NCBI GenBank assembly: GCA_963706025.1
Contig: CAVPLM010000017.1
Span: forward strand, 8,058 to 72,057
Reading direction: 5' to 3'
Length of the DNA stretch: 64,000 nucleotides
From: an uncultured Actinomycetes bacterium
GTDB lineage: Bacteria; Actinomycetota; Thermoleophilia; RBG-16-64-13
A model generated the notes under the pieces. That model was not told where the DNA came from. It made no database searches and saw only the letters and a list, made by a program, of their open reading frames with translations. Below are positions 9,757-34,292 of the stretch, one piece after another. The number at the start of each line of letters is the position of its first letter. Within the stretch, counting starts at the first letter, position 1. The position numbers and the translations under genes were made by a program.

Positions 9757-10935
<1,179 letters not shown>

Positions 10936-10939
<4 letters not shown>

Positions 10940-14247: not shown

Positions 14248-15048
14248 ATGGCTGAACCAGCAAGACTGACGGTTGACGAGCTCCGTAACATCTTCGATCT
14301 GACCGGCAAAGTGGCGGTAGTGACCGGCGGGGGCGGTGCGCTCGGCCAGGCCTGCGCGAGAGGTCTGGCAGCGCACGGCGCCGATGTCGCCGTCGTCGAC
14401 CTGAAGGTCGACCTCATGGACACGATCGTCTCGGAGATCACCGCCTTGGGCCGCAAGGCAGTCCCGTACGGGTGCAACGTTACCGACGAGGCCGGTGTCC
14501 AGGGCGTGATGGACGGTGTCGCCAAGGAATTCGGGAAGGTGGACATCCTCGTCACCACGGCGGGCATCGCCGGGAACCGCCAACCCGCCGAGACGTTCGA
14601 CATGGCCGAATGGCAGAAGGTGATGGACGTCAACGTCCGCGGCACCCTCCTTTGCGCGAAGGCCGCCAGCGGCTACATGATCAAGCAGGGCGGGGGCAAG
14701 GTCGTCACCATCGGCTCGGTACGGGGCTTCCTCGGCCATCCCGGCGGGTATGCGGCATACGGCACTTCCAAGGGTGCCGTTCAGCTGCTCACCAAACAGC
14801 TGGCGACTGAGTGGGCGAAGTATCACATCAACGTGAACTCCATCGCCCCCGCCATCTTCTGGACGCCGCTTACGCAGCAGATCCTCGACGACCCGAAGAT
14901 GTATGAGCTCTTCATGCAGCGTATTCCCTGGGGCCGGGCCGCAATACCGGACGATTTCGTGGGTGCCGTCGTCTATCTCTCGTCTCGAGCCTCTGATTTC
15001 GTGACCGGTCTCATCCTGTCCGTCGACGGCGGCGCGGTGGCCGGATGA
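14248..15048 (+). CDS. SDR oxidoreductase; probable phloroglucinol reductase
   Basis: TGGGGALG, YGTSK catalytic motif, INVNSIAP; next to the cyclase and transhydroxylase. Confidence 0.8.
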   Translation: MAEPARLTVDELRNIFDLTGKVAVVTGGGGALGQACARGLAAHGADVAVVDLKVDLMDTIVSEITALGRKAVPYGCNVTDEAGVQGVMDGVAKEFGKVDILVTTAGIAGNRQPAETFDMAEWQKVMDVNVRGTLLCAKAASGYMIKQGGGKVVTIGSVRGFLGHPGGYAAYGTSKGAVQLLTKQLATEWAKYHINVNSIAPAIFWTPLTQQILDDPKMYELFMQRIPWGRAAIPDDFVGAVVYLSSRASDFVTGLILSVDGGAVAG

Positions 15049-16112: not shown

Positions 16113-17072
16113 ATGGGAAAGAAAGTATTCGTAGACCTGACCCATCCATTCAGTGCGGAGATTCCTCGCTGGCCGTATTTCGTTAAGCCGGTCATCGATT
16201 CGATGCACACCTTGGCAAAGGGCGGCGTCCTCACGCAGAGAGTCGATTGTGTTCAGCACACAGGTACTCATGCGGACGCACCTCGTCACGTTATGGAACG
16301 CGAATTCAACGGCAAAAGAGCTCGTTATACCCATGAAATGCCTGTTGACGCGTACACGGGTGACGCAGTCTGCCTCGAGATCAAGATCCACAAGTGGGGC
16401 CTGATCCTGCCCGAGCATCTCGAGGATGCCTGCAAGAGGGCGAACATCAAGCCGGAAGAGCTCAAGGGCATGGTTGTCTGCCTGAATACCGGCATGCATC
16501 GCCTGTTCGACGACTCCAAAGACTACTACCACTATGCCTGCGGTACCGGCGTCGAGGCCGGCAAGTGGTTCGTGAAGCACCAGGTCAAGTGCGTTGCCAT
16601 GGATTCGCAGGCACTGGATCATCCGCTTCATACGGCTATGGGCAAAAACGGCCCACCGCAGATGAATCTGCCCGGAGCTTCGGGCAAGCCTATCACGGTA
16701 GAATATGCCGAGCAGTTCGGTGAAGAAGCGTATGCCGAATTTGAGAAAGCGGCCTACATCAAGCTGCATGGCCAAGCCGCTTATGATGCCAAATTCGGTG
16801 ATCTCGAAGCGCTTGGAAATGAGGGAACCTGGGAACCCTGCCACAAGCAGATGCTGGGTCACGGCATCGTCGGCGTCGAGAACCTGGGCGGAGACTTGGA
16901 CAAGGTGTCCGGCAAGCGCTTCCGCTTCTTCTGCTTCCCGATCCGCTGGTACATGGGTGACGGCTCGATGGTCCGCTGCGTGGCCGAGATCGACGAAGAC
17001 GACCTGAACGACGTTCCGGATAGGACGTACACGTACTGCGGTACTGGGTACGGCCCGATCTCCGGTTATTGA
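16113..17072 (+). CDS. Cyclase-family metal hydrolase; probable dihydrophloroglucinol cyclohydrolase
   Basis: VDLTHP, HTGTHADAPRH (HxGTHxDxPxH), GVENL, GDGSMVR. Confidence 0.85.
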   Translation: MGKKVFVDLTHPFSAEIPRWPYFVKPVIDSMHTLAKGGVLTQRVDCVQHTGTHADAPRHVMEREFNGKRARYTHEMPVDAYTGDAVCLEIKIHKWGLILPEHLEDACKRANIKPEELKGMVVCLNTGMHRLFDDSKDYYHYACGTGVEAGKWFVKHQVKCVAMDSQALDHPLHTAMGKNGPPQMNLPGASGKPITVEYAEQFGEEAYAEFEKAAYIKLHGQAAYDAKFGDLEALGNEGTWEPCHKQMLGHGIVGVENLGGDLDKVSGKRFRFFCFPIRWYMGDGSMVRCVAEIDEDDLNDVPDRTYTYCGTGYGPISGY

Positions 17073-17135: not shown

Positions 17136-17170
17136 AGCCCCCCGCCGGTTATTCGGCGGGGGGCTTTCTT
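17136..17170 (+). terminator. Intrinsic terminator after the cyclase gene
   Basis: AGCCCCCCGCCG-GTTATT-CGGCGGGGGGCT-TTCTT. Confidence 0.75.
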
Positions 17171-17233: not shown

Positions 17234-17380
17234 ACTGCATTGAGAAGCCTGCGGGATGCCCGTGGAGACCGCGGGTGCCCGTGGGTTTCGCGTGTAGAAT
17301 GAAGCCGATACCAGAGTCCGAGTGCCGGTCGTGCCACAGGGGGCAAGGGCCGCAACAAGGTGAACGGAGGTAAGGCACGC

Positions 17381-19981: not shown

Positions 19982-20817
19982 AGAAGTGGAACATGGTCAT
20001 CGACCTTGCCCGCTGTCACGACTGCAACGACTGCTTCTTGGCCGACAAGGACGAGTTCGTAGGCAATGACTTTCCGCCGTACTCCCTGGCTCAGCCCTGG
20101 TCGGGTCACCGCTGGATGAACATCGAGCGCAAAGAGCGGGGCCAGTATCCCATCGTCCAGGTGTGCTACCTGCCGCGTCCCTGCATGCACTGTGACGAGC
20201 CCCACTGCCTGAGGGACTCGCCCAAGAAGACGATCGAGAAGCGCAAAGACGGCATCGTTCTCATCGATCCCAAGAAGGCCAAAGGCCACCCGGAGATCGT
20301 AGACACCTGCCCCTACGGCTCCATCTACTGGAACGAGGAAGCTCAAGTGGCCCAGAAATGCACGGGCTGCGTGCATCTGCTCGAGGATGACTGGACCGAG
20401 ACCCGCTGCTCGCAGGTGTGCCCCACCGAGGCCATCAAGCTGGTCATGGCCGAGGACGAAGACATGGCCGCGATGGTAGCCGCCGAAGGACTGGAGGTCA
20501 TGCATCCCGAGTTCGGCACCAAGCCTCGGGTCTACTATAAGAACCTCTACCGCTGGACGAAGGTGTTCGTTTCCGGCAGCGTGGCCTACGCAGACACCGA
20601 TGAGTGTGCAGAAGGCGCCCGCGTGATGGTGGCCGAAGTGGGCCATTCGGTGGGCGAGGGCGTGGTCAACAACTACGGCGAGTTCGTTGTCGACAAGCTC
20701 GAGCCGGGCAAAACGTACACCGTCGTCGTAACCGCCGGGGGGTACCAACCCTATTCGGCCGATGTCACCCTGGACAAGAGCCTCAACATAGGGCTGATAC
20801 AGCTCGAAAAGGCCTAG
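19978..20817 (+). CDS. bthL: Transhydroxylase beta (Fe-S) subunit
   Basis: CHDCNDC, CMHCDEPHC, degenerate IDPKKAKG...TCPY, CTGC...CSQVC; C-terminal beta-sandwich domain. Confidence 0.88.
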   Translation: MKKWNMVIDLARCHDCNDCFLADKDEFVGNDFPPYSLAQPWSGHRWMNIERKERGQYPIVQVCYLPRPCMHCDEPHCLRDSPKKTIEKRKDGIVLIDPKKAKGHPEIVDTCPYGSIYWNEEAQVAQKCTGCVHLLEDDWTETRCSQVCPTEAIKLVMAEDEDMAAMVAAEGLEVMHPEFGTKPRVYYKNLYRWTKVFVSGSVAYADTDECAEGARVMVAEVGHSVGEGVVNNYGEFVVDKLEPGKTYTVVVTAGGYQPYSADVTLDKSLNIGLIQLEKA

Positions 20818-21022: not shown

Positions 21023-23629
21023 ATGCCAGACGGGAAGGAGCGGGCCGGAGGGGGCGAGAAGACCATAGTCCGCGACCTCAGTTGGTGCGGGGTGGGTGCC
21101 GGTGCTAACGCATCGATGGTGGACGTGAAGGGTGGCAAGATACTCCGCATCCGTCCCGCCCGCTATTACGAGCGGTACAGCAAAGAAGAGGTCAAGCCCT
21201 GGGTCATGCACGCTCGGGGCAGGACTTTCGAGCCCAGCGAAAAGAGCCTCATCCCTCCGCTCAGTATCGCCTACAAGAAGCGAGTCTACTCCCCGGCCCG
21301 CATACGCTTCCCTATGAGGCGGGTCGATTTCGATCCCAGGCGCCAAGCGGAGAGGCGCAACCCTCAGAACCGGGGAGCGAGCAAGTACGTCCGTATCTCC
21401 TGGGACGAGGCCCTCGAGATCATCACGAGCGAGATGCTCCGCATCAAGGAGACGTACGGTCCCACCGCCCTCCTCTACCAGTCCGACCAGCACGGCGAGA
21501 ACAAGGTGGTGCACGGTCCCCACGGCTGCGGGCGCAAGCTGCTCAGGCTCTTTGGCGGCTACACCCTTCAGGTCCGCCAGCCCGACAGCTGGGAGGGCTG
21601 GTGGTGGGGGGCGAAGCACGTGTGGGGCTGCGAGCCGGTCGGCCAGCAGATGCCTCAGAAGAATCTCCTTCTCGACATCTCCGAGAACGCCGAACTCCTC
21701 CTCTTCTGGGGTTGCGACCAGGAGACCAACACGTGGGGATGGCAGGGGCAACTGCCCAGCCGCTTGACCTATTGGTGGACCGAGCTCGGCATCAAGCAGA
21801 TTTATGTCGCCCCGGACTGCAACTACGCCAACGCGGTCCACGCCGACAAGTGGATCCCCGTCCTTCCCAACACCGACGCCGCCCTCTATCTGGCCATCGC
21901 CCATCACTGGTTCAAGAACGGGACCTACGACAAGGAGTACCTCCACAGCCACGCCTACGGGGTGGACAAGTTCGAAGCCTACGTCATGGGCGAGGAAGAC
22001 GGGGTCGCGAAGACCCCCGAATGGGCGGCCCCGATCACCGGGGTTCCTTCGCGCACCATCAAGGCGCTGGCGCAGGAGTGGGCCTCCAAGCGCACCACGG
22101 TCGTTATCTGCAACGGGGGCCCGGGCATCCGCGGCCCCTATGCGACCGAGCCGGCCCGGCTGCAGGTGCTCTGCCTGGCCATGCAGGGACTGGGCAGACC
22201 GGGCTGCAACCAGGCCAAGATGATCGAGTGGGGTCTGCACCATGACCTGGAACAGATGTCGCCCCCGGCGCCCTCGGTGTTCACCAGCCTGCTCGACGCC
22301 TACACGGGTGGTACTCCGGCCGACACCAATCACCCCTCGTTCCTCCCCAAGACCCTGGTGCCCAAGGCCATCCTGGAAGGGTCGTGCGACTGGTGGGGCA
22401 ACGAGAGCGAGTTTGCCGTCCGCGAGAACCAGTTCGTGCACTACAAGTACCCGGCCGACGGCTGCTCGCGGGTCCACATGATCTGGACCGATTCCCCCTC
22501 CTGGATAACCTGCTGGAACGACGGCAACAACTTCATCCGGGCCCTGCGCGACGAGTCGATCGAGTTCATCTTCTGCCAGCACCCCTGGCTGGAGAACGAC
22601 GCCCTGTTCGCCGACGTCATCCTACCGGTGAACACCAAGCTGGAGGAGGACGACATCGGCAGCGACGTGTTCGGAGGGCAGATGAACCTGCTCTTCCCGG
22701 AGCCTAGGTGTATGGAGCCCCTGGGCGAGTCATGCAGCGACTACGAAGCTGTGTGCAAGATCGCCGAACGGCTGGGGCTGCTGGAGGAGTACACAGGGGG
22801 TAAGACCATCCCCGAACTGATCAAGCTCGGCTACGAGACTTCCGGCGCCGGCCATCTTGTGACTTGGGAACGATTGCAGGAGAAGGGCTACTACGTGGTC
22901 CCGCCCGATCCCGACTGGGAGAAGATCCCAGCCGGGCTCATCCAGTTCTACGAGGATCCAGAGGGGAAACCGCTCACCACGCCTACCGGCAAGCTGGAGT
23001 TCTATGCGACCGGCCTGGCCGAGCATTTCCCCGACGACGACGAGCGAGGGCCCGTGCCGAAGTGGATCGCGCAGGGCGAGACTCACGAAGAGAGCTTGGG
23101 GACCGAGCGGAGTAATAGGTATCCCCTGCTGGTCATGAGCAACCATCCCCGCTGGGGGGTCCACTCCCAGCACGACGACATCACCTGGTTTCGGGAGATC
23201 GAGACCTGCAAGGTTCGGGGCTCGGACGGCTACCAGTATCATCCCCTGTGGATGAACCCCAAGGACGCCGAAGCCCGAGGCATCAAGAAGGGCGACGTGG
23301 TCGGCATCTTCAACGAGCGGGGCATGGTCCTCGCCGGCGCCTACGTGACCGAACGCATAATGCCTGGGGTGGTGGGGATCGACCACGGGGCGAAATACGA
23401 CCCCATCGTCCCCGGTGAGATCGACCGGGGCGGAGCTATCAACACCATCGTCCCCCGCAACACGACCTCCAAGAACGCGGTGGGAATGGTCGTATCCGGT
23501 TTTCTCGCGGAAGTGGAAAAGGCCGATCTGGAGGCTTTGAAGGCCAAATACCCCGAAGTCTTCGGGCGCGAGTGCCACCCGGCTGCCGGCCCGTGCCTGG
23601 CCGGAGTGCTCATGGAGGCTGTGGAGTGA
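21023..23629 (+). CDS. AthL-family Mo-bisPGD enzyme alpha subunit, paralog 1 (substrate unknown)
   Basis: VDVKGGKILRIRP, ISWDEAL, QPDSWEGWWWG, SNHPRWGVHSQ; no Tat signal, no FS0 motif. Confidence 0.88.
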   Translation: MPDGKERAGGGEKTIVRDLSWCGVGAGANASMVDVKGGKILRIRPARYYERYSKEEVKPWVMHARGRTFEPSEKSLIPPLSIAYKKRVYSPARIRFPMRRVDFDPRRQAERRNPQNRGASKYVRISWDEALEIITSEMLRIKETYGPTALLYQSDQHGENKVVHGPHGCGRKLLRLFGGYTLQVRQPDSWEGWWWGAKHVWGCEPVGQQMPQKNLLLDISENAELLLFWGCDQETNTWGWQGQLPSRLTYWWTELGIKQIYVAPDCNYANAVHADKWIPVLPNTDAALYLAIAHHWFKNGTYDKEYLHSHAYGVDKFEAYVMGEEDGVAKTPEWAAPITGVPSRTIKALAQEWASKRTTVVICNGGPGIRGPYATEPARLQVLCLAMQGLGRPGCNQAKMIEWGLHHDLEQMSPPAPSVFTSLLDAYTGGTPADTNHPSFLPKTLVPKAILEGSCDWWGNESEFAVRENQFVHYKYPADGCSRVHMIWTDSPSWITCWNDGNNFIRALRDESIEFIFCQHPWLENDALFADVILPVNTKLEEDDIGSDVFGGQMNLLFPEPRCMEPLGESCSDYEAVCKIAERLGLLEEYTGGKTIPELIKLGYETSGAGHLVTWERLQEKGYYVVPPDPDWEKIPAGLIQFYEDPEGKPLTTPTGKLEFYATGLAEHFPDDDERGPVPKWIAQGETHEESLGTERSNRYPLLVMSNHPRWGVHSQHDDITWFREIETCKVRGSDGYQYHPLWMNPKDAEARGIKKGDVVGIFNERGMVLAGAYVTERIMPGVVGIDHGAKYDPIVPGEIDRGGAINTIVPRNTTSKNAVGMVVSGFLAEVEKADLEALKAKYPEVFGRECHPAAGPCLAGVLMEAVE

Positions 23630-23635
23630 TGCCTG

Positions 23636-23680
23636 CGCCGTTACACTAGGATCTGTCGACGCGTGACGTAAGGGGGACAT
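23636..23680 (+). promoter_or_regulatory. Repeated promoter/RBS cassette, copy 2
   Basis: CGCCGT-TACACT...GTCGACGC...AAGGGGGA; -10 starts 39 nt before the ATG. Confidence 0.65.
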
Positions 23681-26306
23681 ATGCCTGACGGTGAAAAGCG
23701 GGGCAACGGAGACGAGAGGACCGTCGTCCGCGACATGTGTTTCATCGGGATCAGTTGGGGCGGCAACGCCTGCATGGTCGATGTCAAGGACGGCAAGGTG
23801 CTGCGCATCCGCCCGGCCCGCTTCTACGACAAGTACACCAAGGAAGAGGTCAAGCCCTGGGTCATGGAAGCCCGGGGCAAGACCTTCGATCCGGGGGAGA
23901 AGACGCTGCCGCCGCCCTTCAGCATCGCTTACAAGAAACGGGTCTTCTCGCCCGCCCGCATCCGCTACCCCATGAAGCGGGTGGATTTCGACCCGGCTGG
24001 CGCCCCCGGCTCTGTCGGCCCGGGGGGCCGCAACATCCAGAAACGCGGTGTGAGCAAATACGTACGCATATCCTGGGACGAAGCCCTCGACATCATCACC
24101 GGCGAGATGCTCCGTATCAAGGAGACCTACGGCCCCACCGCCATCCTCTACCAGAACGACCAGCACGGCGAGAACAAGACCGTCCACGGACCGCACGGCT
24201 GCGGGCGCAAGCTGCTCGACCTCTTCGGAGGCTACACCCACCAGGTCCGTAACGCCGACAGCTGGGAGGGCTGGTACTGGGGAGCCAAGCACGTGTGGGG
24301 CTGCGAGCCCATCGGCCAGCAGCTCCCTCAGAAGAACCTGCTCCTCGACATCTCGAGAAACGCGGAGCTCCTCCTCTTCTGGGGCTGCGACCCGGAGGCC
24401 ACCCCCTGGGGCTGGGGCGGGCAGTTGGTCAGCCGTTTCAACTATTGGTGGACGGAGCTGGGGATCAAGCAGATCTACATCGCCCCGGACGTGAACTACG
24501 GCAACGCCGTCCACGCCGACAAGTGGATCCCCGTCCTTCCCAACACCGACGCCGCCTTGTATTTAGCCATCGCCCATCGCTGGTTCACGAAAGGCACCTA
24601 CGACAAGGCCTATCTGGAGACCCACGCCTACGGGGTGGAGGAGTTCGAGGCCTACGTGATGGGCGAGGAAGACGGGGTGCCCAAAAGCCCGGAGTGGGCG
24701 GCTCCCATCACCGGGGTGTCGGCCCGCATCATCAAGGCCCTGGCCGACGAGTGGGCTTCCAAGCCCACCACCATCGTCATCAGCAACGGGGGCCCGGCCA
24801 TCCGCGGCCCCTATGCCACCGAACCGGCCCGTCTACAGTGCCTCTGTCTGGCCATGCAGGGGCTGGGCAGACCGGGCTGTAACCAGGCCAAGATGATCGA
24901 GTGGGCGCTCGCCCGCGATCCCGAGAACCAGGCAGCGCCCAAGCCCGAGGTCTCCATCAGTCTGGACGCCGCCTACCGGGGCGACGGACCGCCCGAGTAC
25001 AAACGCGACTCCTGCATCCCCAAGACCCTGGTACCCAAGCTTATCCTGGAGGGCGAGGGCACCTGGTACGGCAACCGCTACGGCATGCGGAGCGACCGGC
25101 TAGACCAGTTCGTCCAGTACAAGTATCCCGCCGACGGGGCCTCCAAGATCCACATGATCTGGACCGACTCCCCCTCCTGGATCACCTGCTGGAACGACGG
25201 CAACAACTTCATCCGAGCCCTCAGGCACCCCGACATCGAGTTCGTCTTCTGCCAGCACCCCTGGCTGGAGAACGACGCCCTCTTCTCAGACGTCATCCTG
25301 CCGGTGAACACCAAGCTGGAAGAGGACGACATCGGCAGCGACATCTTCAGCGGGCAGATGGATATGCTCTTCCCCGAGCCCCGCTGCATGGAGTCGCTGG
25401 GCGAGTCGTGCAGCGACTACGAGGTGGTCTGCAAGCTGGCCGAGCGCCTGGGACTGCTGGAGGAGTACACGGGGGGAGAGAGCATCCCCGAGATCATCAA
25501 GTCCGGCTGGGAGTATTCCGGCGTGGCCGACAAGATCAGTTGGGAGGAGTTGAACGAGAAGGGCTACTACGTGGTCTCCCCCGATCCCGACTGGGAGAAG
25601 ATCCCCGCCGGCTTCATCGAGTTCTACCAGGACCCGGAAGGACATCCCCTCTCCACCCCCACCGGCAAGCTGGAGTTCTACTCCACCGGCCTGGCCGAGC
25701 ACTTCCCCGACGACCCGGAGCGCCCCCCCGTGCCCAAGTGGATCCCGGAAGGGGAATCCCACCAGGAGACGCTGGGGACCGAGAGGTCGAAGAAGTATCC
25801 CCTGCTGGTCATGAGTAACCACCCCCGCTGGGGGGTGCACTCCCAGCACGACGACGTCACTTGGCTTCGGGAGATCGAGACCTGCAAGATCCGGGGGAAG
25901 GACGGGTACCATTACCATCCCCTGTGGATCCATCCGCTCGACGCCGAAGCCCGGGGCGTCAAGCACGGCGACGTGGTCTCCATCTACAACGAGCGGGGCA
26001 CCGTGCTGGCCGGGCGCCTACGTGACCGAGAGGATCATGCCCGGCGCCGTGGGCATCGACCACGGGGCCAAGTACGACCCCATCGTCCCCGGGGAGATCG
26101 ACCGGGGGGGGGTGATCAACACCATCGTCCCCCGCAACTGCACCTCCAAGAACACCGTGGGCATGGTGGTCTCCGGCTTCCTTGTCGAGGTGGAGAAGGC
26201 CGACCTCGAGGCGCTGAGGGCGAAGTATCCGGAGGCCTTCGAACGCGAATGCCACCCCACCGCCGGCCCGTGCCTGGCCGGAGTGCTGATGGAGGGGGTG
26301 GAGTGA
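23681..26306 (+). CDS. AthL-family Mo-bisPGD enzyme alpha subunit, paralog 2 (frameshift near 26012)
   Basis: NADSWEGWYWG; the true C-terminus continues in ORF 26022-26306 (DHGAKYDP...GVLMEGVE). Confidence 0.88.
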
Positions 26307-26351
26307 TACCTGCGCCTGCTGGGCCGCAACGCTCTGGGCGCGCCCGGCCGG

Positions 26352-26396
26352 CGCCGTTACACTGAAGACCGTCGACGCTTGACCGAAGGGGGATAC
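26352..26396 (+). promoter_or_regulatory. Repeated promoter/RBS cassette, copy 3
   Basis: CGCCGT-TACACT...GTCGACGC...AAGGGGGA; -10 starts 39 nt before ATG 26397. Confidence 0.65.
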
Positions 26397-28991
26397 ATGG
26401 CGGGAAGCGAGAAGCGTGGCAAGGGAGGCGAGAGGACGATCGTCCGCGACATCAGCTGGTGCGGCGTCTTCAACGGCGCCAACGCCTGCATGGTGGATGT
26501 CAAGGACGGCAAGATGCTTCGCATCCGACCGGCCCGCTACTACGAGCAGTACACCAAAGAAGAGGTCAAGCCGTGGGTGATGCATGCCCGGGGCAAGACC
26601 TTCGAGCCTAGTGAGAAGAGCCTCGCGCCTCCGCTCAGCCTGGGCTACAAGAAGCGGGTTTACTCCCCCGCCCGCATCCGCTACCCCATGAAACGGGTGG
26701 ACTTCGATTCCAACGGGGAGCGCAATCCCCAGAACCGGGGCGTCAGCAAGTACGAGCGCATCAGCTGGGACGAGGCCCTCGACATCATCGCGAGCGAGAT
26801 GATCCGGATCAAGGAGACGTACGGCCCGACCGCCATCCTCAACCAGTCCGACCAGCACGGCGAGAACAAGTGCGTCCACGGCCCCCACGGCTGCATGCGC
26901 AAGCTGCTGAACCTGTTCGGCGGTTACACCCTGCAGGTCCGCCAGCCCGACAGCTGGGAAGGCTGGTGGTGGGGGGCCAAGCACGTATGGGGTTGCGAAC
27001 CGGTGGGCCAGCAGATGCCGCAGAAGAACCTGCTCTACGACATCTCCAAGAACACCGAGCTTCTGCTGTTCTGGGGGTGCGACCAGGAGACCACGGTCTG
27101 GGGCTGGCAGGGTCAACTCACGAGCCGCCTCAGCTACTGGTGGACGGACCTCGGCATCAAGCAGATCTACATCGCCCCCGACGTCAACTACGCGGCTGCG
27201 GTGCACGCCGACAAGTGGATCCCCATCCTGCCCAACACCGACGCGGCCCTCTATCTGGCCATCTGCTATCAGTGGTTCAGAAACGGCACCTACGACAAGG
27301 AGTACCTGGAGACCCACGCTTATGGCGTCGACAAGTTCGAGGATTACGTGATGGGCAAGGAGGATGGGATTCCCAAGACCCCGGAATGGGCCTCCCCGAT
27401 CACCGGCGTGCCCTCGCGCATCATCAAGGCTCTGGCCGATGAATGGGCCTCCAAGCGGACCACCATATGCATCGGCAACGGGGGCCCCGGCATCCGCGGC
27501 CCCTATGCCACCGAGCCCGCTCGGCTGCAGGTCATCTGCCTGGCCATGCAAGGCCTGGGCAAGCCCGGCTGTAACCAGTCCAAGATGATCGAGTGGGGCC
27601 TGCTCGACAACTTCGAGCAGATGTCGCCGCCGGCTCCGTCGGTGTTGACCCACCTTGTCGAGGCGTACACCGGCAGCACCCCCATGGAAACGAATCATCC
27701 GTCGTTCCTGCCCAAGACCCTGGTGCCCAAGGCCATCCTGGAGGGCGCGTGCGATTGGTGGGGGAACGAGCACGAGTTCACCTCTCGGGAGAACCAGTTC
27801 GTCCACTACAACTACCCGGCCGAGGGCTGCTCGCGGGTCCACATGATCTGGACCGACTCGCCCTCCTGGATCACCTGCTGGAACGACGGCAACAACTTCA
27901 TCCGGGCCATGCGCCATCCCGACATCGAGTTCATCCTGTGCCAGCATCCCTGGCTGGAGAACGACGCTCTCTTCGCCGACGTCATCCTGCCGGTCAACAC
28001 CATGTTGGAGGAAGACGACATCGGTAGCGACATCTTCAGCGGGCAGATGAATCTGCTGTTTCCAGAGCCGCGATGCATCGAGCCTCTGGGCGAGTCCCTA
28101 AGTGATTACGAGATCGTGTGCAAGATCGCCGAGCGGTTGGGGCTGTTGGAGGAGTACACGGGCGGGAAGACCATCCCCGAACTGATCAAGCTCGGCTACG
28201 AGACTTCCCGGGCCGCTCACCTCGTCAGTTGGGAAGAGCTGAACGAGAAGGGCTACTACGTGATCCCTCCCGACCCCGATTGGGAGAAGATCCCCGCCGG
28301 CCTCATCGACTTCTACAACGATCCGGAGAGGTATCCGCTTTCCACGCCGACCGGCAAGCTCGAGTTCTACTCCACCGGCCTAGCCGAGCACTTCCCCGAC
28401 GACCAAGAGCGGGGGCCGGTGCCCAAGTGGATCGCGAAGGGGGAGAGCCATGAGGAGACCGTCGGCACAGAGCGCAGCAAGAAGTATCCGCTCCTGGTCA
28501 TGAGCAACCACCCCCGCTGGGGAGTGCACTCCCAGCACGAAGACATCACCTGGCTGAGGGAGATCGAGACTTGTAAGGTCAGAGGACCGGACGGCTATCA
28601 GTACCACCCCCTGTGGATCAACCCGGTGGACGCCGCAGCCCGGGGCATCAGGAAGGGCGACGTGGTCAGCGTGTTCAATGAGCGGGGCACGGTCCTCGCG
28701 GGGGCCTACGTGACCCAGCGCATCATGCCCGGGGTAGTGGGCATGGACCATGGGGCCAAATACGATTGCATCGTCCCCGGGGAGATCGACCGGGGCGGGG
28801 CCATCAACAGCATCGTGCCCAGGAACACCACCTCCAAGAACGCCGTGGGGATGGTGGTCTCCGGCTTCCTGGCGGAAGTAGAGAAGACCGACCTGGAAGA
28901 ACTGAAGCGCAAATACCCGGAAGCCTTCGAAAAGCCGTTCCATCCGTGTGCCGGACCGGGGCTCGAGGCCTGCATCCTAGGAGGAGAATGA
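26397..28991 (+). CDS. AthL-family Mo-bisPGD enzyme alpha subunit, paralog 3
   Basis: QPDSWEGWWWG; highly similar to paralog 1. Confidence 0.88.
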   Translation: MAGSEKRGKGGERTIVRDISWCGVFNGANACMVDVKDGKMLRIRPARYYEQYTKEEVKPWVMHARGKTFEPSEKSLAPPLSLGYKKRVYSPARIRYPMKRVDFDSNGERNPQNRGVSKYERISWDEALDIIASEMIRIKETYGPTAILNQSDQHGENKCVHGPHGCMRKLLNLFGGYTLQVRQPDSWEGWWWGAKHVWGCEPVGQQMPQKNLLYDISKNTELLLFWGCDQETTVWGWQGQLTSRLSYWWTDLGIKQIYIAPDVNYAAAVHADKWIPILPNTDAALYLAICYQWFRNGTYDKEYLETHAYGVDKFEDYVMGKEDGIPKTPEWASPITGVPSRIIKALADEWASKRTTICIGNGGPGIRGPYATEPARLQVICLAMQGLGKPGCNQSKMIEWGLLDNFEQMSPPAPSVLTHLVEAYTGSTPMETNHPSFLPKTLVPKAILEGACDWWGNEHEFTSRENQFVHYNYPAEGCSRVHMIWTDSPSWITCWNDGNNFIRAMRHPDIEFILCQHPWLENDALFADVILPVNTMLEEDDIGSDIFSGQMNLLFPEPRCIEPLGESLSDYEIVCKIAERLGLLEEYTGGKTIPELIKLGYETSRAAHLVSWEELNEKGYYVIPPDPDWEKIPAGLIDFYNDPERYPLSTPTGKLEFYSTGLAEHFPDDQERGPVPKWIAKGESHEETVGTERSKKYPLLVMSNHPRWGVHSQHEDITWLREIETCKVRGPDGYQYHPLWINPVDAAARGIRKGDVVSVFNERGTVLAGAYVTQRIMPGVVGMDHGAKYDCIVPGEIDRGGAINSIVPRNTTSKNAVGMVVSGFLAEVEKTDLEELKRKYPEAFEKPFHPCAGPGLEACILGGE

Positions 28992-29815
28992 TGGGCAAGG
29001 TAATGGTCATTGATCTGGCCATCTGCAACGGCTGCCACAACTGCCAGGTGGCCTGCAAAGACGAGCACGTGGCCAACGACTGGTCGCCTATCGCCAAACC
29101 GCAGCCCGATACGGGCCAGTTCTGGAACAAGGTGATCAACCTGGAGCGGGGCACGGTGCCCAAGGTGCAGGTGACCTACCATCACTCCATCTGCCAGCAC
29201 TGCGAAGAGGCTCCGTGCATCGAGTCCTGTAACGCTCATGCCATCTACCGTCGAGCGGACGGCATCGTCATCATCGACCCAGAGAAATGCCGGGGAAACC
29301 AGCTCTGTCTGGAGGCCTGCCCCTACGAGAACGTCATCTACTTCAACGACGACCTCAACATCGCCCAGAAATGCACCTTCTGCGCTCACCTTCTGGACCA
29401 GGGCTGGACGGAGACCCGCTGCTCGGATGCCTGTCCCACGGGAGCATTCACCTTCGGAGACGAAGACGACCTCGCCGAAGTGATCGCGAAAGCCGAGCTC
29501 CTGAAACCGGAGCTCCCTACCCGCCCCCGGGTCTACTACCTACACCTGCCCAAGAAGTGGATCGCCGGGGCCGTCTATGACTCCGAAGCCGATGAGTGCA
29601 CGGAAGGAGCCACCGTCACCGCCACCAACCGGGAGACAGGGGAGAAGGTAGCCGCGACCACCGATAACTACGGCGACTTCTGGCTCAAGGACCTCCCGGA
29701 TGGCACCTACACGCTGCTCATCGAGAAGGAGGGGTATCTCACCCAGAAGCTGGGTCCCGTAGACGCCACCCAAGAGGACCAGAACCTGGGCGATATCGTG
29801 CTCTGGAAGGCCTAG
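28988..29815 (+). CDS. BthL-like Fe-S beta subunit (four Cys groups)
   Basis: CNGCHNCQVAC, CQHCEEAPCIESC, CRGNQLCLEAC, CTFC...CSDAC; start overlaps the alpha stop. Confidence 0.88.
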   Translation: MMGKVMVIDLAICNGCHNCQVACKDEHVANDWSPIAKPQPDTGQFWNKVINLERGTVPKVQVTYHHSICQHCEEAPCIESCNAHAIYRRADGIVIIDPEKCRGNQLCLEACPYENVIYFNDDLNIAQKCTFCAHLLDQGWTETRCSDACPTGAFTFGDEDDLAEVIAKAELLKPELPTRPRVYYLHLPKKWIAGAVYDSEADECTEGATVTATNRETGEKVAATTDNYGDFWLKDLPDGTYTLLIEKEGYLTQKLGPVDATQEDQNLGDIVLWKA

Positions 29816-29869
29816 GGCGGGGTCCTGGAGACGACCCCGGGCATCTGATCGCCTACCCAACGGAGGAGA

Positions 29870-30703
29870 GTGTCGATGGCAAGGTCCGGGGGCCGGCCGA
29901 GATCACCCGTTCATGATCAGTCAGGGGAGGAGAGCGATCTCTTCGTCCAGGCTCTTGCCCGCGGTCTCACGATCCTGGCGCTCTTCGACATCGAGCATCC
30001 CCAGTGGAGTCTGAGCGAGATCTGTGCGCGCACCGGCATCTCCAAGACCACGGCCTACCGCATGTTGCGGACCCTGGAGTGGAAGGACTTCGTGGTCTTC
30101 GATCCCGAGACCGACCTCTACCATCTGGGCAGGGCCACGATCCCGGGGGCCTACCTGGCGCTGTCGTCCGTCAGCTTCGTACGTGCCGTTCATCCGTTCC
30201 TGGAGGAATTGGCCGAAGCTACGGGGGAGACGGTGGAGCTCACGGTGGAGGGGGCCGGAGGAGCGGTAGTGGTCGATCAGGTTGCCACCACCCATCCGTT
30301 CAAGCCCAACCTCCCCATCGGCCGTGTCCTCTCCAGCGTGGCCAATTCATCCTTTCGCATGCATGTGGCTTTCAGGCCTGAAGCGGAGCGACAGAAGATC
30401 TTGCGTTCCGCCCAACTGAGGTTCACTCCGAACACCGTGACCGATCCCGAAGAGATCGAGAACCAACTGGCCGCGGCCATCCGCGACGGCGTCTCGTACG
30501 ACATCGAGGAGCAGGACCTCGGCGTGTGCGCGGTCTCCGCGCCGGTCTTCGGCGCAGATCGCGGCGTGAGGGCGGTTGTCACCGTCGTGGCGCCATCCGA
30601 GCGTTTCGGGCAGCGAGAAAAAAGGAAGAACACAGAGGCGGTGAAGAACATCGCGGCGGAGATGACCCGCTACCTGAGCCGGGTGACATCCACCGCTCGT
30701 TGA
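29870..30703 (+). CDS. IclR-family transcriptional regulator
   Basis: VQALARGLTIL...GISKTTAYRML HTH; EEQDLGVCAVSAPV. Confidence 0.9.
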   Translation: MSMARSGGRPRSPVHDQSGEESDLFVQALARGLTILALFDIEHPQWSLSEICARTGISKTTAYRMLRTLEWKDFVVFDPETDLYHLGRATIPGAYLALSSVSFVRAVHPFLEELAEATGETVELTVEGAGGAVVVDQVATTHPFKPNLPIGRVLSSVANSSFRMHVAFRPEAERQKILRSAQLRFTPNTVTDPEEIENQLAAAIRDGVSYDIEEQDLGVCAVSAPVFGADRGVRAVVTVVAPSERFGQREKRKNTEAVKNIAAEMTRYLSRVTSTAR

Positions 30704-30755
30704 CTCCGGCCTCGGACAGTGGCATAGTGTACCAGCGGACGAAGGCGGAATAGAG

Positions 30756-30772
30756 ATTCCGCTAGTCGGAAT
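30756..30772. promoter_or_regulatory. Putative operator ATTCCG-N5-CGGAAT (copy 3, perfect)
   Basis: ATTCCG-CTAGT-CGGAAT just upstream of the paralog 4 RBS. Confidence 0.55.
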
Positions 30773-30811
30773 AGGGGAGTAGAAGAGAGCAAGCAGTACT
30801 AAGGAGGCACT

Positions 30812-33412
30812 ATGGCGGAAGACCGGGCCAAGAACAGCAAGTCGGGCGAACGCACGCTGATACGGGACATCAGCTTCTGCGGCGTGCCCGAGAACGGCTC
30901 CAACGCATCGATGGTGGACGTCAAGGACGGCAAGATCATCCGTATCCGCCCGATGCACTACGACTGGAAGTACGATCCCGAGAAGGATATGAACCCGTGG
31001 AAGTTCGAAGTGCGCGGCAAGACCTTCGAACCCAGCATGAAGACCCTCATCCCACCGTACTCCATCGCCTACAAGAAGCGCGTCTATTCGCCTGCCCGCA
31101 TCCGCTATCCCATGATGCGGGTCGACTTCGATCCGAACGGAGAGCGCAACCCGCAGAACCGGGGCGTCAGCAAATACAAGCGCATCTCCTGGGACGAGGC
31201 TCTCGACATCATCACCGGCGAGATGAGCCGCATCAAGGAAAAATACGGGCCCACCGCCGTTCTCTACGAGAGCGACCAGCACGGCGAGAACAAAGTGGTG
31301 CAGGCCTGCCACGGCGCCGGCCGGAAGCTGCTGCGTCTGTGGGGCGGCTTCACCCAGCAGAACCGTCAGCCCGACAGCTGGGAAGGCTGGTGGTTCGGGA
31401 GCAAGCACTTCTGGGGTTGCGAGCCCGTCGGTCAAGGGAAGCAGAGCAACCTGCTCTACGACATGTCCAAGAACGCCGAACTGCTCCTGTTCTGGGGCTG
31501 CGACCAGGAGACGACCCCATGGGGCTGGCAGGGCCAGCTCCCCAGCCGTCTCAGCTACTACTGGACGGAACTCGGCATCAAGCAGATCTACGTGTGCCCC
31601 GACCTCAACTACGCCGCCGCCGTCCATGCCGACAGGTGGATCCCGGTCCTGCCGAACACCGACGCGGCACTGTATCTGGCAATCACCTACCAGTGGTTCA
31701 AGGACGGCACCTACGACAAGGAATACCTCGCTACTCATGCCGTCGGCGTGGACAAGTACGAGGCCTACGTCATGGGCGAAGAGGACGGCGTTCCCAAAAC
31801 GCCTGAGTGGGCGGCGCCGATCACCGGCGTGCCTGCACGTGTGATCAAGGCGCTGGCCAAAGAGTGGGCCTCCAAGCGCACTACCGTCGTCATCGGTAAC
31901 GGCGGCCCCGGCATCCGCGGACCTTATGCGACCGAAGCGGCTCGTCTGCAGTGCGTTTGTCTGGCCATGCAGGGCCTAGGCAAGCCGGGTGTCAATCAGG
32001 CCAAGATGATCGAGTGGGGGCTCTTCGACAAGCCGGATCAGTACGCTCAACCCAAGCCACTGCGTGTGCCCAACCTGCGTGCTGCGTACACCGGCGGTCA
32101 CCCGGACGAGACCAACCATCCGTCTTTCATCCCCAAGACGTATATCCCCAAGGCCATCCTTGAAGGCGAATGCGATTGGTACGGCGTCGAGTGCGAGACG
32201 GCCGACCGCACAGATCAGTTCGTGCACTACAAATACCCGGCCGACGGCTGCTCCCAGGTCCACATGGTCTGGACCGACTCGCCGTCCTGGATCACATGCT
32301 GGAACATGGGCAACGAGTATATCCAAGCCATGCGCCATCCCTCCATCGAGTTCATGTTCTGCCAGCACCCGTGGCTCGAGAATGACGCCCTGCTGGCCGA
32401 CATCATCCTGCCGGTCAACACGAAGCTCGAAGAGGACGATATCGCCGGCGACATCTTCAGCGGCCAGTACAACCTGCTCTTCCCCGAGCACAAATGCATC
32501 GAGCCGCTGGGTGAGTCCTACAGCGACTACGAGATCGTCTGCATGATCGCCAAGCGTCTAGGCCTGTACGAGGAGTACACCAAGGGCAAGTCCATCCCCG
32601 AGCTGATCAAGTACGGTTGGGAGACCTCCCGTTGCGCCGACCTCATTACCTGGGAGGAGCTCAACGAGAAAGGCTACCTCGTGATCCCAACCGCCGATGG
32701 CTGGGAGAACGAACCGGCCGGCTTCGAACTCTTCTACAAGGACCCGGAGAACTACCCGCTCTCAACACCGACCGGCAAGCTCGAGTTCGAGTCCACCGGC
32801 CTACTCGAGCACTTCCCGGACGACCTGGAACGGCCGCCGGTACCGAAGTGGATCGCCCAAGGCATCAGCCACGAGGAGACCATCGGCACCGAGCGCTCCA
32901 AGAAGTATCCGCTGCTCGTCTGTTCCAACCACCCGCGTTGGGGCGTGCACTCGCAGCACGACGACATCACCTGGCTGCGTGAGATCGAGACCTGCAAGAT
33001 GACCGGTCCGGACGGCTACCAGTACCACACGGTCTGGCTGCATCCGTCGACGGCCGAGTCACGCGGCATCAAACACGGGGATATAGTGTCCATCTTCAAC
33101 GAGCGCGGCACCGTGCTCGGCGGCGCGTACGTCACCGAGCGCCTCATGCCGGGCGTCGTCTACATCGACCATGGCGCCAAGTGGGACCCGATCGAGCCAG
33201 GCGTGATCGATCGTGGAGGCGCCATCAACACCATCGTTCCCAAGAACACCACCTCGAAGAACGCGGTGGGCCATGCGGTCAGTGGCTTCCTGGCCGAAAT
33301 CGAGAAGACCGACATGGAGGAGCTGAAGCGCAAGTATCCGGAAGCCTTCGAAAAGCCCTTCCACCCCTGTGCGGGTCCCGGTTTAGAGGCCTGCATCATG
33401 GGAGGTGAATGA
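30812..33412 (+). CDS. AthL-family Mo-bisPGD enzyme alpha subunit, paralog 4
   Basis: QPDSWEGWWFG, SNHPRWGVHSQ, DHGAKWDP. Confidence 0.88.
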   Translation: MAEDRAKNSKSGERTLIRDISFCGVPENGSNASMVDVKDGKIIRIRPMHYDWKYDPEKDMNPWKFEVRGKTFEPSMKTLIPPYSIAYKKRVYSPARIRYPMMRVDFDPNGERNPQNRGVSKYKRISWDEALDIITGEMSRIKEKYGPTAVLYESDQHGENKVVQACHGAGRKLLRLWGGFTQQNRQPDSWEGWWFGSKHFWGCEPVGQGKQSNLLYDMSKNAELLLFWGCDQETTPWGWQGQLPSRLSYYWTELGIKQIYVCPDLNYAAAVHADRWIPVLPNTDAALYLAITYQWFKDGTYDKEYLATHAVGVDKYEAYVMGEEDGVPKTPEWAAPITGVPARVIKALAKEWASKRTTVVIGNGGPGIRGPYATEAARLQCVCLAMQGLGKPGVNQAKMIEWGLFDKPDQYAQPKPLRVPNLRAAYTGGHPDETNHPSFIPKTYIPKAILEGECDWYGVECETADRTDQFVHYKYPADGCSQVHMVWTDSPSWITCWNMGNEYIQAMRHPSIEFMFCQHPWLENDALLADIILPVNTKLEEDDIAGDIFSGQYNLLFPEHKCIEPLGESYSDYEIVCMIAKRLGLYEEYTKGKSIPELIKYGWETSRCADLITWEELNEKGYLVIPTADGWENEPAGFELFYKDPENYPLSTPTGKLEFESTGLLEHFPDDLERPPVPKWIAQGISHEETIGTERSKKYPLLVCSNHPRWGVHSQHDDITWLREIETCKMTGPDGYQYHTVWLHPSTAESRGIKHGDIVSIFNERGTVLGGAYVTERLMPGVVYIDHGAKWDPIEPGVIDRGGAINTIVPKNTTSKNAVGHAVSGFLAEIEKTDMEELKRKYPEAFEKPFHPCAGPGLEACIMGGE

Positions 33413-34242
33413 TGGGCAAGGTCCTTGTCATCAACTATGACATCTGTAACGGCTGCTACAACTGCCAGGTGGCCTGCAAGGACGAGCACGTGGCCAACGA
33501 CTGGTCGCCTATCGCCAAGCCGCAGCCGGACACCGGCCAGTTCTGGAACAAGGTCTACGACAACGTCCGCGGCCAGGTACCCAAGGTCAAGGTGACTTAC
33601 GAGCACAGCATCTGCCAGCACTGCGACGAGGCTCCCTGCATCGAGGCCTGCAACGTGCACGCTATCTACAAGCGCGACGATGGGGCGGTCATCATCGACC
33701 CCGACAAATGCCGCGGCAACCAGATGTGCATCGCGGCCTGCCCGTACGAGAACGTGATCTACTTCAACGACATGCTCAACATCGCTCAGAAGTGCACCTT
33801 CTGCGCACACCTCCTGGATGACGGTTGGGCGGAGCCCCGTTGCGCGGATGCCTGCCCCACCGGTGCCTTCACGTTCGGCGAGGAGGACGATCCCAAGATC
33901 AAGGAGCTCATCGCCAAGGCGGAGCCGCTCAAGCCGGAACTGGAAGTCAAGCCGCGGGTGTACTACATCGGTCTGCCCAAGAAGTTCATCGCCGGGGCGC
34001 TGTTCGATCAGGAGGTCGACGAGTGCGCCGAAGGCGCTACCGTCAAGGCCACCAACACCGAGACAGGCGACAAGTACCAGGCCACGAGCGACAGCTACGG
34101 CGACTTCTGGCTGAACGGCCTGAAGAACGGCACCTACACCTTGCTGATCGAGAAGCCCGGGTACCTGACGCAGAAGTTCGGCCCTGTCGATGTCACTCAG
34201 AAGGACATGAACGTGGGCGACATCGCCATCTGGAAGGCGTAG
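33409..34242 (+). CDS. BthL-like Fe-S beta subunit (four Cys groups)
   Basis: CNGCYNCQVAC, CQHCDEAPCIEAC, CRGNQMCIAAC, CTFC...CADAC. Confidence 0.88.
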   Translation: MMGKVLVINYDICNGCYNCQVACKDEHVANDWSPIAKPQPDTGQFWNKVYDNVRGQVPKVKVTYEHSICQHCDEAPCIEACNVHAIYKRDDGAVIIDPDKCRGNQMCIAACPYENVIYFNDMLNIAQKCTFCAHLLDDGWAEPRCADACPTGAFTFGEEDDPKIKELIAKAEPLKPELEVKPRVYYIGLPKKFIAGALFDQEVDECAEGATVKATNTETGDKYQATSDSYGDFWLNGLKNGTYTLLIEKPGYLTQKFGPVDVTQKDMNVGDIAIWKA

Positions 34243-34292
34243 CCGCCGCTCGATCGACCTCGGGAGCGCTGTGTTAGACAGGATGACCGACT

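Follow-up and report, generated by a model that had tools for sequence, protein, structure and literature searches.

What do four divergent relatives of pyrogallol transhydroxylase do when their genes lie in a row behind a canonical transhydroxylase gene pair? Such a row, made up of genes that we call P1 to P4, occupies positions 21023-34242 of a 64,000-nucleotide stretch of contig CAVPLM010000017.1 (the window, to whose coordinates all positions refer), which belongs to a metagenome-assembled genome (MAG) of an uncultured actinobacterium of the class Thermoleophilia. A preliminary description of this DNA had noticed four paralogues of about 870 residues after an athL/bthL pair, and this layout stands: the open reading frames (ORFs) and their translations give 868, 894 (as an ORF), 870 and 866 residues. 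What it had missed are a frameshift in P2, two genes for iron-sulfur (Fe-S) beta subunits and an IclR-family gene inside the interval. Below we argue that P1-P4 are, rather probably, the catalytic subunits of four conserved, uncharacterised groups of molybdenum (Mo) enzymes that act on other phenolics and belong to one clade, here named after its DQHGENK motif. The genes concerned, all on the + strand like the other island genes listed further below, are:

17360..19981, + strand, canonical AthL-type large subunit, 873 residues (1297 bits to PDB 4v4c_A, residues 8-871)
19978..20817, + strand, BthL-type small subunit with a three-cluster cysteine pattern, lacking Cys81, Cys101 and Cys107 (numbering of the P4 beta subunit)
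21023..23629, + strand, P1, DQHGENK-clade large subunit, 868 residues, without a beta gene of its own (IEWGLHHD.., WWGNESEFA)
23681..26306, + strand, P2, DQHGENK-clade large subunit, 894 residues as an ORF, frameshifted (IEWALARDPENQAAP, GTWYGNRYGMRS)
26379..28991, + strand, P3, DQHGENK-clade large subunit, 870 residues (IEWGLLDNFEQMSPP, WWGNEHEF)
28988..29815, + strand, P3 beta subunit, an Fe-S protein whose ferredoxin domain has 15 cysteines and whose C-terminal domain is carboxypeptidase-regulatory-like; its gene overlaps the P3 stop (28988 vs 28991)
29870..30703, + strand, IclR-family transcription regulator by family match, between the P3 beta gene and P4
30812..33412, + strand, P4, DQHGENK-clade large subunit, 866 residues, member of the most conserved group (IEWGLFDKPDQYAQP, CDWYGVECETAD, VVQACHG)
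33409..34242, + strand, P4 beta subunit, with a four-cluster cysteine pattern like that of the P3 beta subunit by sequence

By domain content, sequence and fold, P1 falls into the branch of AthL, the large subunit of the Pelobacter acidigallici enzyme, as had been proposed. It carries PF00384 (E 4e-21), PF01568 (E 6e-19) and the AthL-like domain 1, PF21423 (34.4 bits, cut-off 27), and Pfam places no PF04879 (Fe4S4 domain) on it; the PF00384 and PF01568 pair is present on 120/120 and 120/120 of the family matches listed. The best sequence match in the PDB is AthL (E 2e-127), followed by dimethyl sulfoxide (DMSO) reductase (1e-73) and acetylene hydratase (1e-12). An AlphaFold2 model of P1 (mean predicted local distance difference test score, pLDDT, 79; predicted template modelling score, pTM, 0.82) likewise retrieves AthL as its best Foldseek match (4v4c_A, template modelling score, TM, 0.82, 31 % identity), with MtsZ and the DMSO and trimethylamine N-oxide (TMAO) reductases at TM 0.75; a search of the ESM Atlas returned just generic AthL-like and S/N-oxide reductase clusters. 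No twin-arginine leader, signal peptide or Fe-S site was seen on the P alpha subunits. The label canonical for the neighbouring AthL-type protein is justified, as it matches the Pelobacter enzyme over its full length at 1297 bits and retains SHHLWGNVGYRH, SHH, YR, DSW, GGWGG, PGYAEGG, GKGF and ANCSGY. P1 itself is 84 % identical in protein sequence to P3, 76 % to P2, 74 % to P4 and 38 % to this AthL, and the four pairs of paralogues compared share 74-82 % of their DNA. The statement that the paralogues are very similar except in short segments was therefore too strong (74-84 % protein identity for P1), and the segments quoted for it are indeed among the most group-specific.

The catalytic core is kept in P1-P4 and much of the surrounding pocket is not. 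Following the HMMER alignment, residues are numbered by AthL, and 121 family sequences were tabulated in this way, 82 of them from the DQHGENK clade. The equivalents of His144, Asp174, Ser175, Trp176 and Arg359 are invariant in 121/121 sequences; we take His144 and Asp174 of AthL to be catalytic, and Tyr152, Arg153, Trp354, Phe468 and Tyr560 to be pocket or co-substrate residues. As had been reported, all four window proteins contain DSWEGW, whose serine (AthL Ser175) is presumably the Mo ligand, as well as (S/N)DQHGENK, and the ANCSGY segment is unrecognisable, with a 9-residue gap at this point in each of them. SDQHGENK takes the place of the AthL motif without a change in length and preserves its first histidine, His144. 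Throughout the clade (82/82), His145 is replaced by Gly, Tyr152 by Gly or Ala and Arg153 by Pro, Cys or Asp, and the positions of Trp354 and of the Tyr560 loop are deleted; Trp147 has become Asn in 78/82. The Phe468 position varies by group (Glu/Ser in P1, Tyr in P2, His/Ser in P3 and Ser in P4). Among 32 AthL-type sequences, Tyr152, Arg153, Trp354, Phe468 and Tyr560 are kept in 21-32, depending on the position.

To locate the residues that distinguish the paralogous groups, a group-specificity score (within-group minus between-group BLOSUM) was computed over 868 positions in 11-residue windows. The three top-ranked windows are P1 residues 406-416, 430-440 and 455-465, followed by 21-31, 418-428, 46-56, 858-868 and 160-170, the last of which aligns with AthL 148-158. 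The two variable segments singled out in the preliminary description, whose quoted strings are found letter for letter in the translations, correspond to the first and third of these windows; HMMER, MAFFT and hhalign align them to AthL 405-420, beside Tyr404, and 463-472, over Phe468. Its proposal of specificity-diversified pocket stretches holds up, in that divergence is concentrated in these stretches, which are conserved within each group and differ from AthL. A stricter test, which required each of the four groups to reach at least 80 % conservation and the position to show at least three residue states, singles out just 1/868 positions. The ratio of nonsynonymous to synonymous substitution rates (dN/dS) between orthologues is 0.05-0.15 for whole genes and 0.00-0.25 for residues 396-472, and judged by these ratios the group-specific pocket stretches are under purifying selection within groups. 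In the P1 model, residues 400-439 are almost devoid of regular secondary structure and of middling confidence (pLDDT 61-78 in the loop of the Tyr404 region), which is what would be expected of pocket loops modelled without the cofactor. At the other end of the proteins, all clade members possess a C-terminal tail of ~33 residues that is absent from AthL and contains conserved Cys, His and Pro (patterns ..KYPEAF.R.CH..AGPC.AG.. or ..KPFHPCAGPGLEAC..; positions 23530-23626 in P1, 28890-28988 in P3 and 33310-33409 in P4). The tail of the window P3 is of the P4 type, unlike the consensus of other P3 orthologues, and the model pLDDT there is < 50.

How P1-P4 relate to each other becomes clear from their orthologues. 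A scan of one genome per species yielded 278 relatives, the best 80 of which define 76 loci, all in MAGs; the hosts of these best 80 are Actinomycetota (Thermoleophilia, Gaiellales), Chloroflexota (Dehalococcoidia), Desulfobacteraceae and Geopsychrobacteraceae. A tree was built from the 123 large subunits of at least 780 residues found in these loci and in this genome (shorter ones were dropped) and was read together with the motif table. The 82 sequences of the DQHGENK clade resolve into four groups, one for each window gene, and 7 sequences that lie outside the groups:

Group P1, 7 sequences: IEWGLHHD.EQ.SPPAPS and WWG[NA]E.EFA
Group P2, 19 sequences: IEWAL....PENQAAP and GTWYGNRYGMRS
Group P3, 11 sequences: IEWGLLD..EQMSPPAPS
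Group P4, 38 sequences: IEWGLFDKPDQYAQPKPL, CDWWGCESETADR and VVQACHG

P1 has matches in other genomes at 87 % and 86 % identity, compared with 83-84 % to its array neighbour P3, and the duplications therefore predate these lineages. The array is accordingly best read, from these comparisons, as four old and widespread groups brought together and not as a local duplication burst; the local expansion that had been suggested is not borne out, since each paralogue is more similar to orthologues from other genomes than to its array neighbours. Group P4 is the most uniform, its members being 82-94 % identical in freshwater and sediment MAGs assigned to Actinomycetota, Chloroflexota, Desulfobacterota and Aminicenantes, and 83-94 % in those of the first three phyla (habitats are named without the small-share runs X10-X20). 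The clade as a whole is large, as ~4,900-5,000 of 8,000 scored candidates pass E <= 1e-50 or 1e-100.

The beta subunits provide a fresh hint at redox chemistry. Those of P3 and P4 combine PF13247 with PF13620 and match 4v4c_B at E 2.6e-47. Their ferredoxin domain holds 15 cysteines, including Cys23, Cys81, Cys101 and Cys107; group III reads C-x5-C-x3-CP and group II has a fourth Cys. In four-cluster ferredoxins such as NarH and DmsB, these cysteines bind the distal cluster that passes electrons to the partner subunit, and a three-cysteine version of an Fe-S site holds a [3Fe-4S] cluster. Cys81, Cys101 and Cys107 are kept in 16/16 beta subunits encoded beside P3-type genes and 39/41 beside P4-type genes, and are absent from 26/26 BthL-type beta subunits, 20 of which also have Asp in place of Cys23. 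The crystallised BthL shows the identical loss in the alignment, and the beta subunits of this genome are split by type in the same way. Because the fourth-cluster cysteines lost in BthL are retained, P3-beta and P4-beta probably keep a complete electron path and carry out net redox chemistry. We infer that the electron path of AthL/BthL is shortened, consistent with a redox-neutral reaction.

In what pathway would these enzymes work? Upstream of AthL lie the following genes and one hairpin:

12922..13746, + strand, beta-keto-acid cleavage enzyme, candidate triacetate acetoacetate-lyase (TAL; NCBIfam Kce-family, E 3.6e-98)
14248..15048, + strand, short-chain dehydrogenase/reductase, candidate phloroglucinol reductase (PGR; matches to that family, kept in related clusters)
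15045..16007, + strand, 3-hydroxyacyl-CoA-dehydrogenase-like protein, candidate 3-hydroxy-5-oxohexanoate dehydrogenase (TfD; family matches)
16113..17072, + strand, cyclase-family protein, candidate dihydrophloroglucinol cyclohydrolase (DPGC; weak arylformamidase/cyclase match)
17136..17165, + strand, terminator-like hairpin in the DPGC/AthL gap (13-pair stem, 11 G-C, T-rich tail), by consensus match only

The PGR, DPGC, TfD and TAL families are those of phloroglucinol degradation in Clostridium scatologenes, as given in the accessible text of PMC10470551, from which the role of TAL is also taken. TfD orthologues are 87-93 % identical in L002, L003, L056, L064 and L074 (L numbers denote the 76 loci), and DPGC is 78-97 % identical in related loci, one orthologue carrying PF04199 (Cyclase). 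By these genes, the interval, AthL/BthL and PGR-DPGC-TfD-TAL are together a predicted catabolic island for polyhydroxylated aromatics, and the earlier placement of the array in a phloroglucinol/pyrogallol setting is upheld by upstream pathway-type genes that recur in related loci. The promoter and terminator scan as a whole gave results at chance (3 promoter-like matches vs 3.3 expected; 7 terminator-like vs 11.1 expected).

The order TAL-PGR-TfD-DPGC-AthL-BthL-P-(beta)-IclR-P4-beta, followed by genes for a solute-binding protein and an ATP-binding cassette (ABC) transporter, recurs in L002, L003, L056, L063, L064, L074 and L031. The array itself varies: AthL-BthL-P1-P2 is found in L001, AthL-BthL-P1-IclR-P4-beta in L002, L003, L063 and L064, and AthL-BthL-P3-beta-IclR-P4-beta in L074. 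Two clade genes occur together in 10/76 loci and three or more in 0/76, which makes the four-gene array the largest seen among the 76 loci. Related clusters, too, have the IclR gene after their first P gene and ahead of P4, at 64-90 % identity (L002, L003, L015, L031, L056, L063, L064, L065, L073 and L074). P1 orthologues are located within 10 kb of an AthL-type gene in 5/6 loci and of TfD/DPGC in 4/6, and P4 orthologues in 21/37 and 9/37, respectively. In Dehalococcoidia (L044, L047, L050 and L052), P4-beta is divergent to a PGR-DPGC-TfD-TAL-AthL-BthL operon, and across phyla P4 remains 83-90 % identical as compared with 59-63 % for AthL in the same loci.

P2 orthologues have neighbours of their own. 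A small nitroreductase-family gene lies directly downstream in L010 (12597-13151), L018 (2650-3255), L041 (3394-4026) and L061 (12586-13182), and in L027 and L055 it follows a beta gene; an Amidohydro_2 gene is directly adjacent in L012 (12214-13830), L021 and L060 (12531-13844). The Amidohydro_2 family includes hydroxybenzoate decarboxylases. It is possible that the nitroreductase flavoprotein is a redox partner, and the Amidohydro_2 protein a substrate supplier, for P2 orthologues.

Downstream of the array, the window continues with solute-binding proteins, a creatininase-family gene and an Arr/Psr-type Mo enzyme set; further on lie genes for a corrinoid protein and an MtmB-like methyltransferase, those of an ABC transporter and another IclR gene. 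The creatininase-family gene (37886-38746) has counterparts of 72-82 % identity beside clade genes in L057 and L074. The Arr/Psr/Phs-type Mo enzyme (40164-42698, with an Fe4S4 domain) is separate from the array and stands within 39302-43475, with a DmsC-like membrane anchor gene upstream and a 4Fe-4S protein gene downstream. The corrinoid-binding protein and the MtmB-like methyltransferase adjoin at 43472-45492; together they may demethylate methoxylated aromatics or methylamines and feed the same island.

The integrity of the array was examined with Logan contigs from four public runs placed on 17300-34300. Contigs of run X2, from a different study, bridge P1-P2 (23131-23778), P3-beta (28215-29058) and beta-IclR-P4 (29544-31392), and a contig from the RNA library X19 bridges P2-P3 (26326-26493). 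Because the paralogues differ (74-82 % DNA identity) and independent contigs bridge the junctions, the array is not an assembly duplication, a possibility that the preliminary description had raised and that is thereby excluded. Between P3-beta and P4-beta, no tract of recent gene conversion was found (top 90-nucleotide window, 0.89 identity). One contig of run X5 links 21002 to 23670 through 9 letters of other sequence, and depth over P1 is 0.3-1.5 as against ~13 elsewhere; this relative carries a natural variant of the array in which BthL is directly followed by P2, without P1. Contigs of X19 match AthL, P2, P3, P4 and the P4 beta gene, a weak hint given that DNA carry-over is possible; coverage in this run is patchy and was used neither for gene ranking nor for transcription-unit claims.

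P2 contains an extra G in ccGGGcgcc (run 26012-26014; insertion 26012-26015), which causes a 1-nucleotide frameshift over the last ~96 codons. From the end of ...VLAG at 26014, the ORF continues into an out-of-frame tail rich in Arg, Pro and Gly; the true C-terminus (AYVTERIMPG...) resumes at 26016 and stops at 26304-26306. Base 26015 is absent from run X2 (23.2 of 23.2 depth), so that P2 is in frame there, as it is in L001, and is present in X1, the best-matching run, which may be the source sample (of a depth of 19.9, 0 lacks the base). Compared with intact orthologues, P2 has a low dN/dS both before the shift (0.11-0.13) and after it (0.05-0.14), and the break therefore appears to be recent or strain-specific, or possibly a sequence error. 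Elsewhere in the window other genes look split, namely DNA polymerase I in two frames (polA 55379/56554), solute-binding protein pieces and overlapping trpB/trpA ORFs; these stretches (55379-57792, 34769-36807, 45733-46728 and 9795-11736) represent assembly error or gene decay.

The host itself is rich in such enzymes. Its MAG (3.66 Mb, 92 % complete, 7 % contamination) has five UbiD-family decarboxylase genes, and no COX1 or NarG was found above cut-off in this 92 %-complete genome; the organism is probably anaerobic, as judged from its gene content. A BldD-like domain and the nearest relatives assign it to the Actinomycetota. The genome contains ~25 AthL-family large-subunit loci (contigs C1, C3, C5, C8, C14, C19, C26 and C29), ~8 of them interrupted: ~10 are AthL-type, 5 are "intermediate" SHH-type and 4 are broken remnants, and to these are added the four window genes, one more DQHGENK-clade gene and 2 of a "GDGHGE" type. 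Three of the AthL-type copies, those on C1, C8 and C29, hardly differ from one another and may have been duplicated in assembly or binning. The two "GDGHGE[CN]K" relatives (C3:516178-519362 and C3:654994-658428) are 52 % identical to P1-P4, and the beta subunit of one has the full CxxCxxCxxxCP in group III. Among genomes of the same family, 13/18 have 1-26 AthL-family matches (E <= 1e-100), 11 of these having at least 7; at the same threshold, no match occurs in genomes of the other families in the class (0/12). Within this sample the AthL-family expansion is a trait of the bacterial family, with 7-26 matches per 2-4 Mb genome.

Comparison with known systems defines what is shared and what is new. 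P1-P4 have in common with AthL/BthL (PDB 4V4C) a Ser-ligated large subunit with Mo-bis(pyranopterin guanine dinucleotide) (Mo-bisPGD) and the PF21423 domain, but are only 31-38 % identical to AthL, replace its His145, Trp147, Tyr152 and Arg153, lack the Trp354 and Tyr560 loops and have rebuilt the loop around Tyr404. Their P3 and P4 beta subunits share the ferredoxin domain and the C-terminal beta-sandwich domain of BthL but keep the fourth-cluster cysteines that BthL lost, and P1 and P2, unlike AthL, have no beta gene of their own. A table in PMC10100899 lists PgtL and RhL with a Ser Mo ligand, and RehLS (Azoarcus/Aromatoleum anaerobium) and DbhLS (Thauera aromatica AR-1) belong to this same RhL/PgtL Ser-ligated branch as far as that source details it. 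Their O2-free, water-dependent ring hydroxylation is the net redox type that we propose for P3 and P4. Over the first ~400 residues of RehL (A0N0U2) given in Data Set S1B of PMC7327174, the motifs are PSHHQWGNIGYY, YLAAGGLG and DSWEGW, and RehL is thus of the AthL-like SHH type; at the site of PSHHQWGNIGYY, P1-P4 have SDQHGENKVVHG. DQHGE has 0 matches in the searchable text of that data set, which is apparently incomplete (NCSGY is also missing from it, though present in AthL). The DMSO, TMAO, biotin-sulfoxide and MtsZ reductases share the Ser-ligated Mo-bisPGD fold (TM 0.75) and are single-subunit enzymes, as P1 and P2 may be, but they differ in their N-terminal domain, and P3 and P4 differ from them in having beta subunits and an aromatic-catabolism context. 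Gut Eggerthellaceae possess catechol dehydroxylases (Dadh, Cldh, Hcdh and others), which are also strongly expanded Mo-bisPGD enzymes that act without O2 on ring hydroxyls, and in the accessible text of PMC7028382 they form a clade near acetylene hydratase, not in the AthL branch of P1-P4. We rejected the assignment of P1-P4 to the catechol dehydroxylases (acetylene hydratase E 1e-12 vs AthL 2e-127; no PF04879 on P1 by Pfam). In the literature searched on transhydroxylases, resorcinol hydroxylase and related reactions, no paper characterises or separates the DQHGENK clade, in agreement with the earlier remark that no characterised member was known; a search on Tyr404/His144 returned nothing relevant, and one on the names RehL/DbhL/AthL returned unrelated papers.

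How might the P enzymes work? They would be cytoplasmic, with Mo held by Ser189 (P1 numbering, as for the following residues) and with His157 and Asp188, which correspond to AthL His144 and Asp174, acting as an acid-base pair. The predicted loops 157-170 and ~400-470 would form a pocket for a phenolic, whose ring would gain or lose a hydroxyl or have one shifted. Because the pocket loops are group-specific, each group may take its own substrate, candidates being hydroxyhydroquinone, tetrahydroxybenzenes, resorcinol, gallate and dihydroxybenzoates. With their four-cluster beta subunits, P3 and P4 would probably perform a net two-electron hydroxylation or dehydroxylation; P1 and P2, which have no beta gene of their own (P1 always lying behind BthL), could catalyze a redox-neutral transfer or share the beta subunit of another enzyme. 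The products of P1 and P4 most likely pass to AthL or to the phloroglucinol pathway, and P2 would be inactivated in this strain by the recent frameshift. The sequences themselves show the gene content, the family, the conserved core, the lost AthL pocket residues, the group-specific loops, the beta-subunit cysteines, the synteny and the purifying selection; the class of substrate, the redox character and the tie to the pathway are inferences from them.

Several observations weigh against this model or limit it. P2 and P3 orthologues are seldom near the proposed pathway (within 10 kb of an AthL-type gene in 1/18 and 2/10 loci, and of TfD/DPGC in 0/18 and 2/10, respectively), and the suggestion that the array feeds the adjacent pathway is thus plausible mainly for P1 and P4, by the counts given above. 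The "intermediate" SHH-type paralogues, which have a RehL-like motif, also have three-cluster beta subunits, and cluster count alone therefore cannot separate redox from redox-neutral enzymes. The position of Tyr404 depends on the alignment: the 123-sequence MAFFT pairs it with a conserved tyrosine, P1 Tyr427, whereas HMMER, the 5-sequence MAFFT and hhalign put it in a 15-residue insertion found just in AthL. The roles of AthL residues 144, 152, 153, 174, 354, 404, 468 and 560 are those reportedly assigned in the 2004 crystal-structure work and are taken as given. The best NCBIfam matches are S/N-oxide reductase models, far below their cut-offs; the other split genes in the window make some assembly sequence error possible; and the literature searched holds no substrate, product or activity for any member of the DQHGENK clade.

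These points bear on several other explanations of the array. The S-/N-oxide reductase matches raise the question of whether P1-P4 are enzymes of the DMSO, TMAO, biotin-sulfoxide or MtsZ type that are unrelated to aromatics, a view with which the best NCBIfam models (bisC_fam, dmsA_ynfE and TorA), the fold similarity (TM 0.75) and the names in the source database agree. We regard it as very improbable: the NCBIfam scores fall far short (e.g. 333 vs 1018 bits), AthL is the better match in sequence and fold, the AthL-specific PF21423 is present, the beta subunits are BthL-like with the same C-terminal domain, and synteny with phloroglucinol genes is conserved. That P1-P4 are pyrogallol-phloroglucinol transhydroxylase isoenzymes, kept for dosage or regulation, is quite unlikely as well. 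They do share the fold and the catalytic Ser, Asp and His, lie behind AthL/BthL, and belong to a set of homologues all of which metagenome studies annotate as pyrogallol transhydroxylase (PMC3971608 and PMC4959651, in their accessible text); but they are 36-38 % identical to AthL, the clade has lost Tyr152, Arg153, Trp354 and the Tyr560 loop in 82/82 sequences, a canonical AthL is adjacent with about nine more AthL-type copies elsewhere in the genome, the pocket loops are group-specific under purifying selection, and the beta cluster sites differ. Least probable of all is that the array consists mostly of decaying, non-functional pseudogenes from the family expansion. The frameshift in P2, the ~8 interrupted loci among ~25 and the related population without P1 would fit such decay, but the reading frames of P1, P3 and P4 are unbroken and their dN/dS against orthologues is 0.05-0.15, P2 has low dN/dS on both sides of its shift and is in frame in X2 and L001, and RNA-library contigs fall, as a weak sign, on P2, P3 and P4.

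More serious, though still with a small chance of being correct, is the idea that P4-beta, and perhaps P1, is an accessory of AthL. AthL is said, from work of Brune and Schink in 1990, to need a tetrahydroxybenzene co-substrate, and P4-beta would either produce this 1,2,3,5-tetrahydroxybenzene, hydroxylating pyrogallol or phloroglucinol with water, or remove it by the opposite, reductive reaction, with electrons passing through the four-cluster beta subunit. P4-beta is the group found most often by AthL/BthL (21/37 loci), in distant phyla as well (L044, L047, L050 and L052); its identity across phyla exceeds that of AthL in the same loci (83-90 % vs 59-63 %), and its beta subunit keeps the distal Fe-S site. 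Set against this, 16/37 P4 loci have no AthL-type gene within 10 kb, and no electron partner gene is conserved beside P4. A more speculative reading, to which we would give a modest chance, takes its cue from extracts of Pelobacter, which reportedly showed other anaerobic hydroxyl-transfer reactions on polyhydroxybenzenes some ~35 years ago: the four groups may be the genes for these transfers, including the stepwise route from hydroxyhydroquinone to phloroglucinol and the supply of the AthL co-substrate, with P4-beta as a water-dependent ring hydroxylase/dehydroxylase. If P4 is such an enzyme, it could trade electrons with the step in which NADPH reduces the phloroglucinol ring, and phenols such as resorcinol or hydroxyhydroquinone could then be fermentable via the phloroglucinol pathway without an external electron acceptor.

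To our knowledge, just two activities of the AthL branch have been tied to genes, pyrogallol transhydroxylation and resorcinol/3,5-dihydroxybenzoate hydroxylation, both in few cultured bacteria. What this work adds is the division of the DQHGENK clade into four groups and the four-cluster beta subunits, which hint at a redox function. The four groups, with their defined pocket signatures and, in two of them, a distinctive beta subunit, are targets for finding the genes behind the old hydroxyl-transfer reactions. Should they have other substrates or carry out redox chemistry, inferences about anoxic polyphenol turnover that are drawn from counts of "pyrogallol transhydroxylase" would need revision, which would touch on the "enzyme latch" idea for peat and on methane mitigation with polyphenols. 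For the uncultured actinobacterial family itself, the AthL-family arsenal parallels the sets of catechol dehydroxylases in gut Eggerthellaceae.

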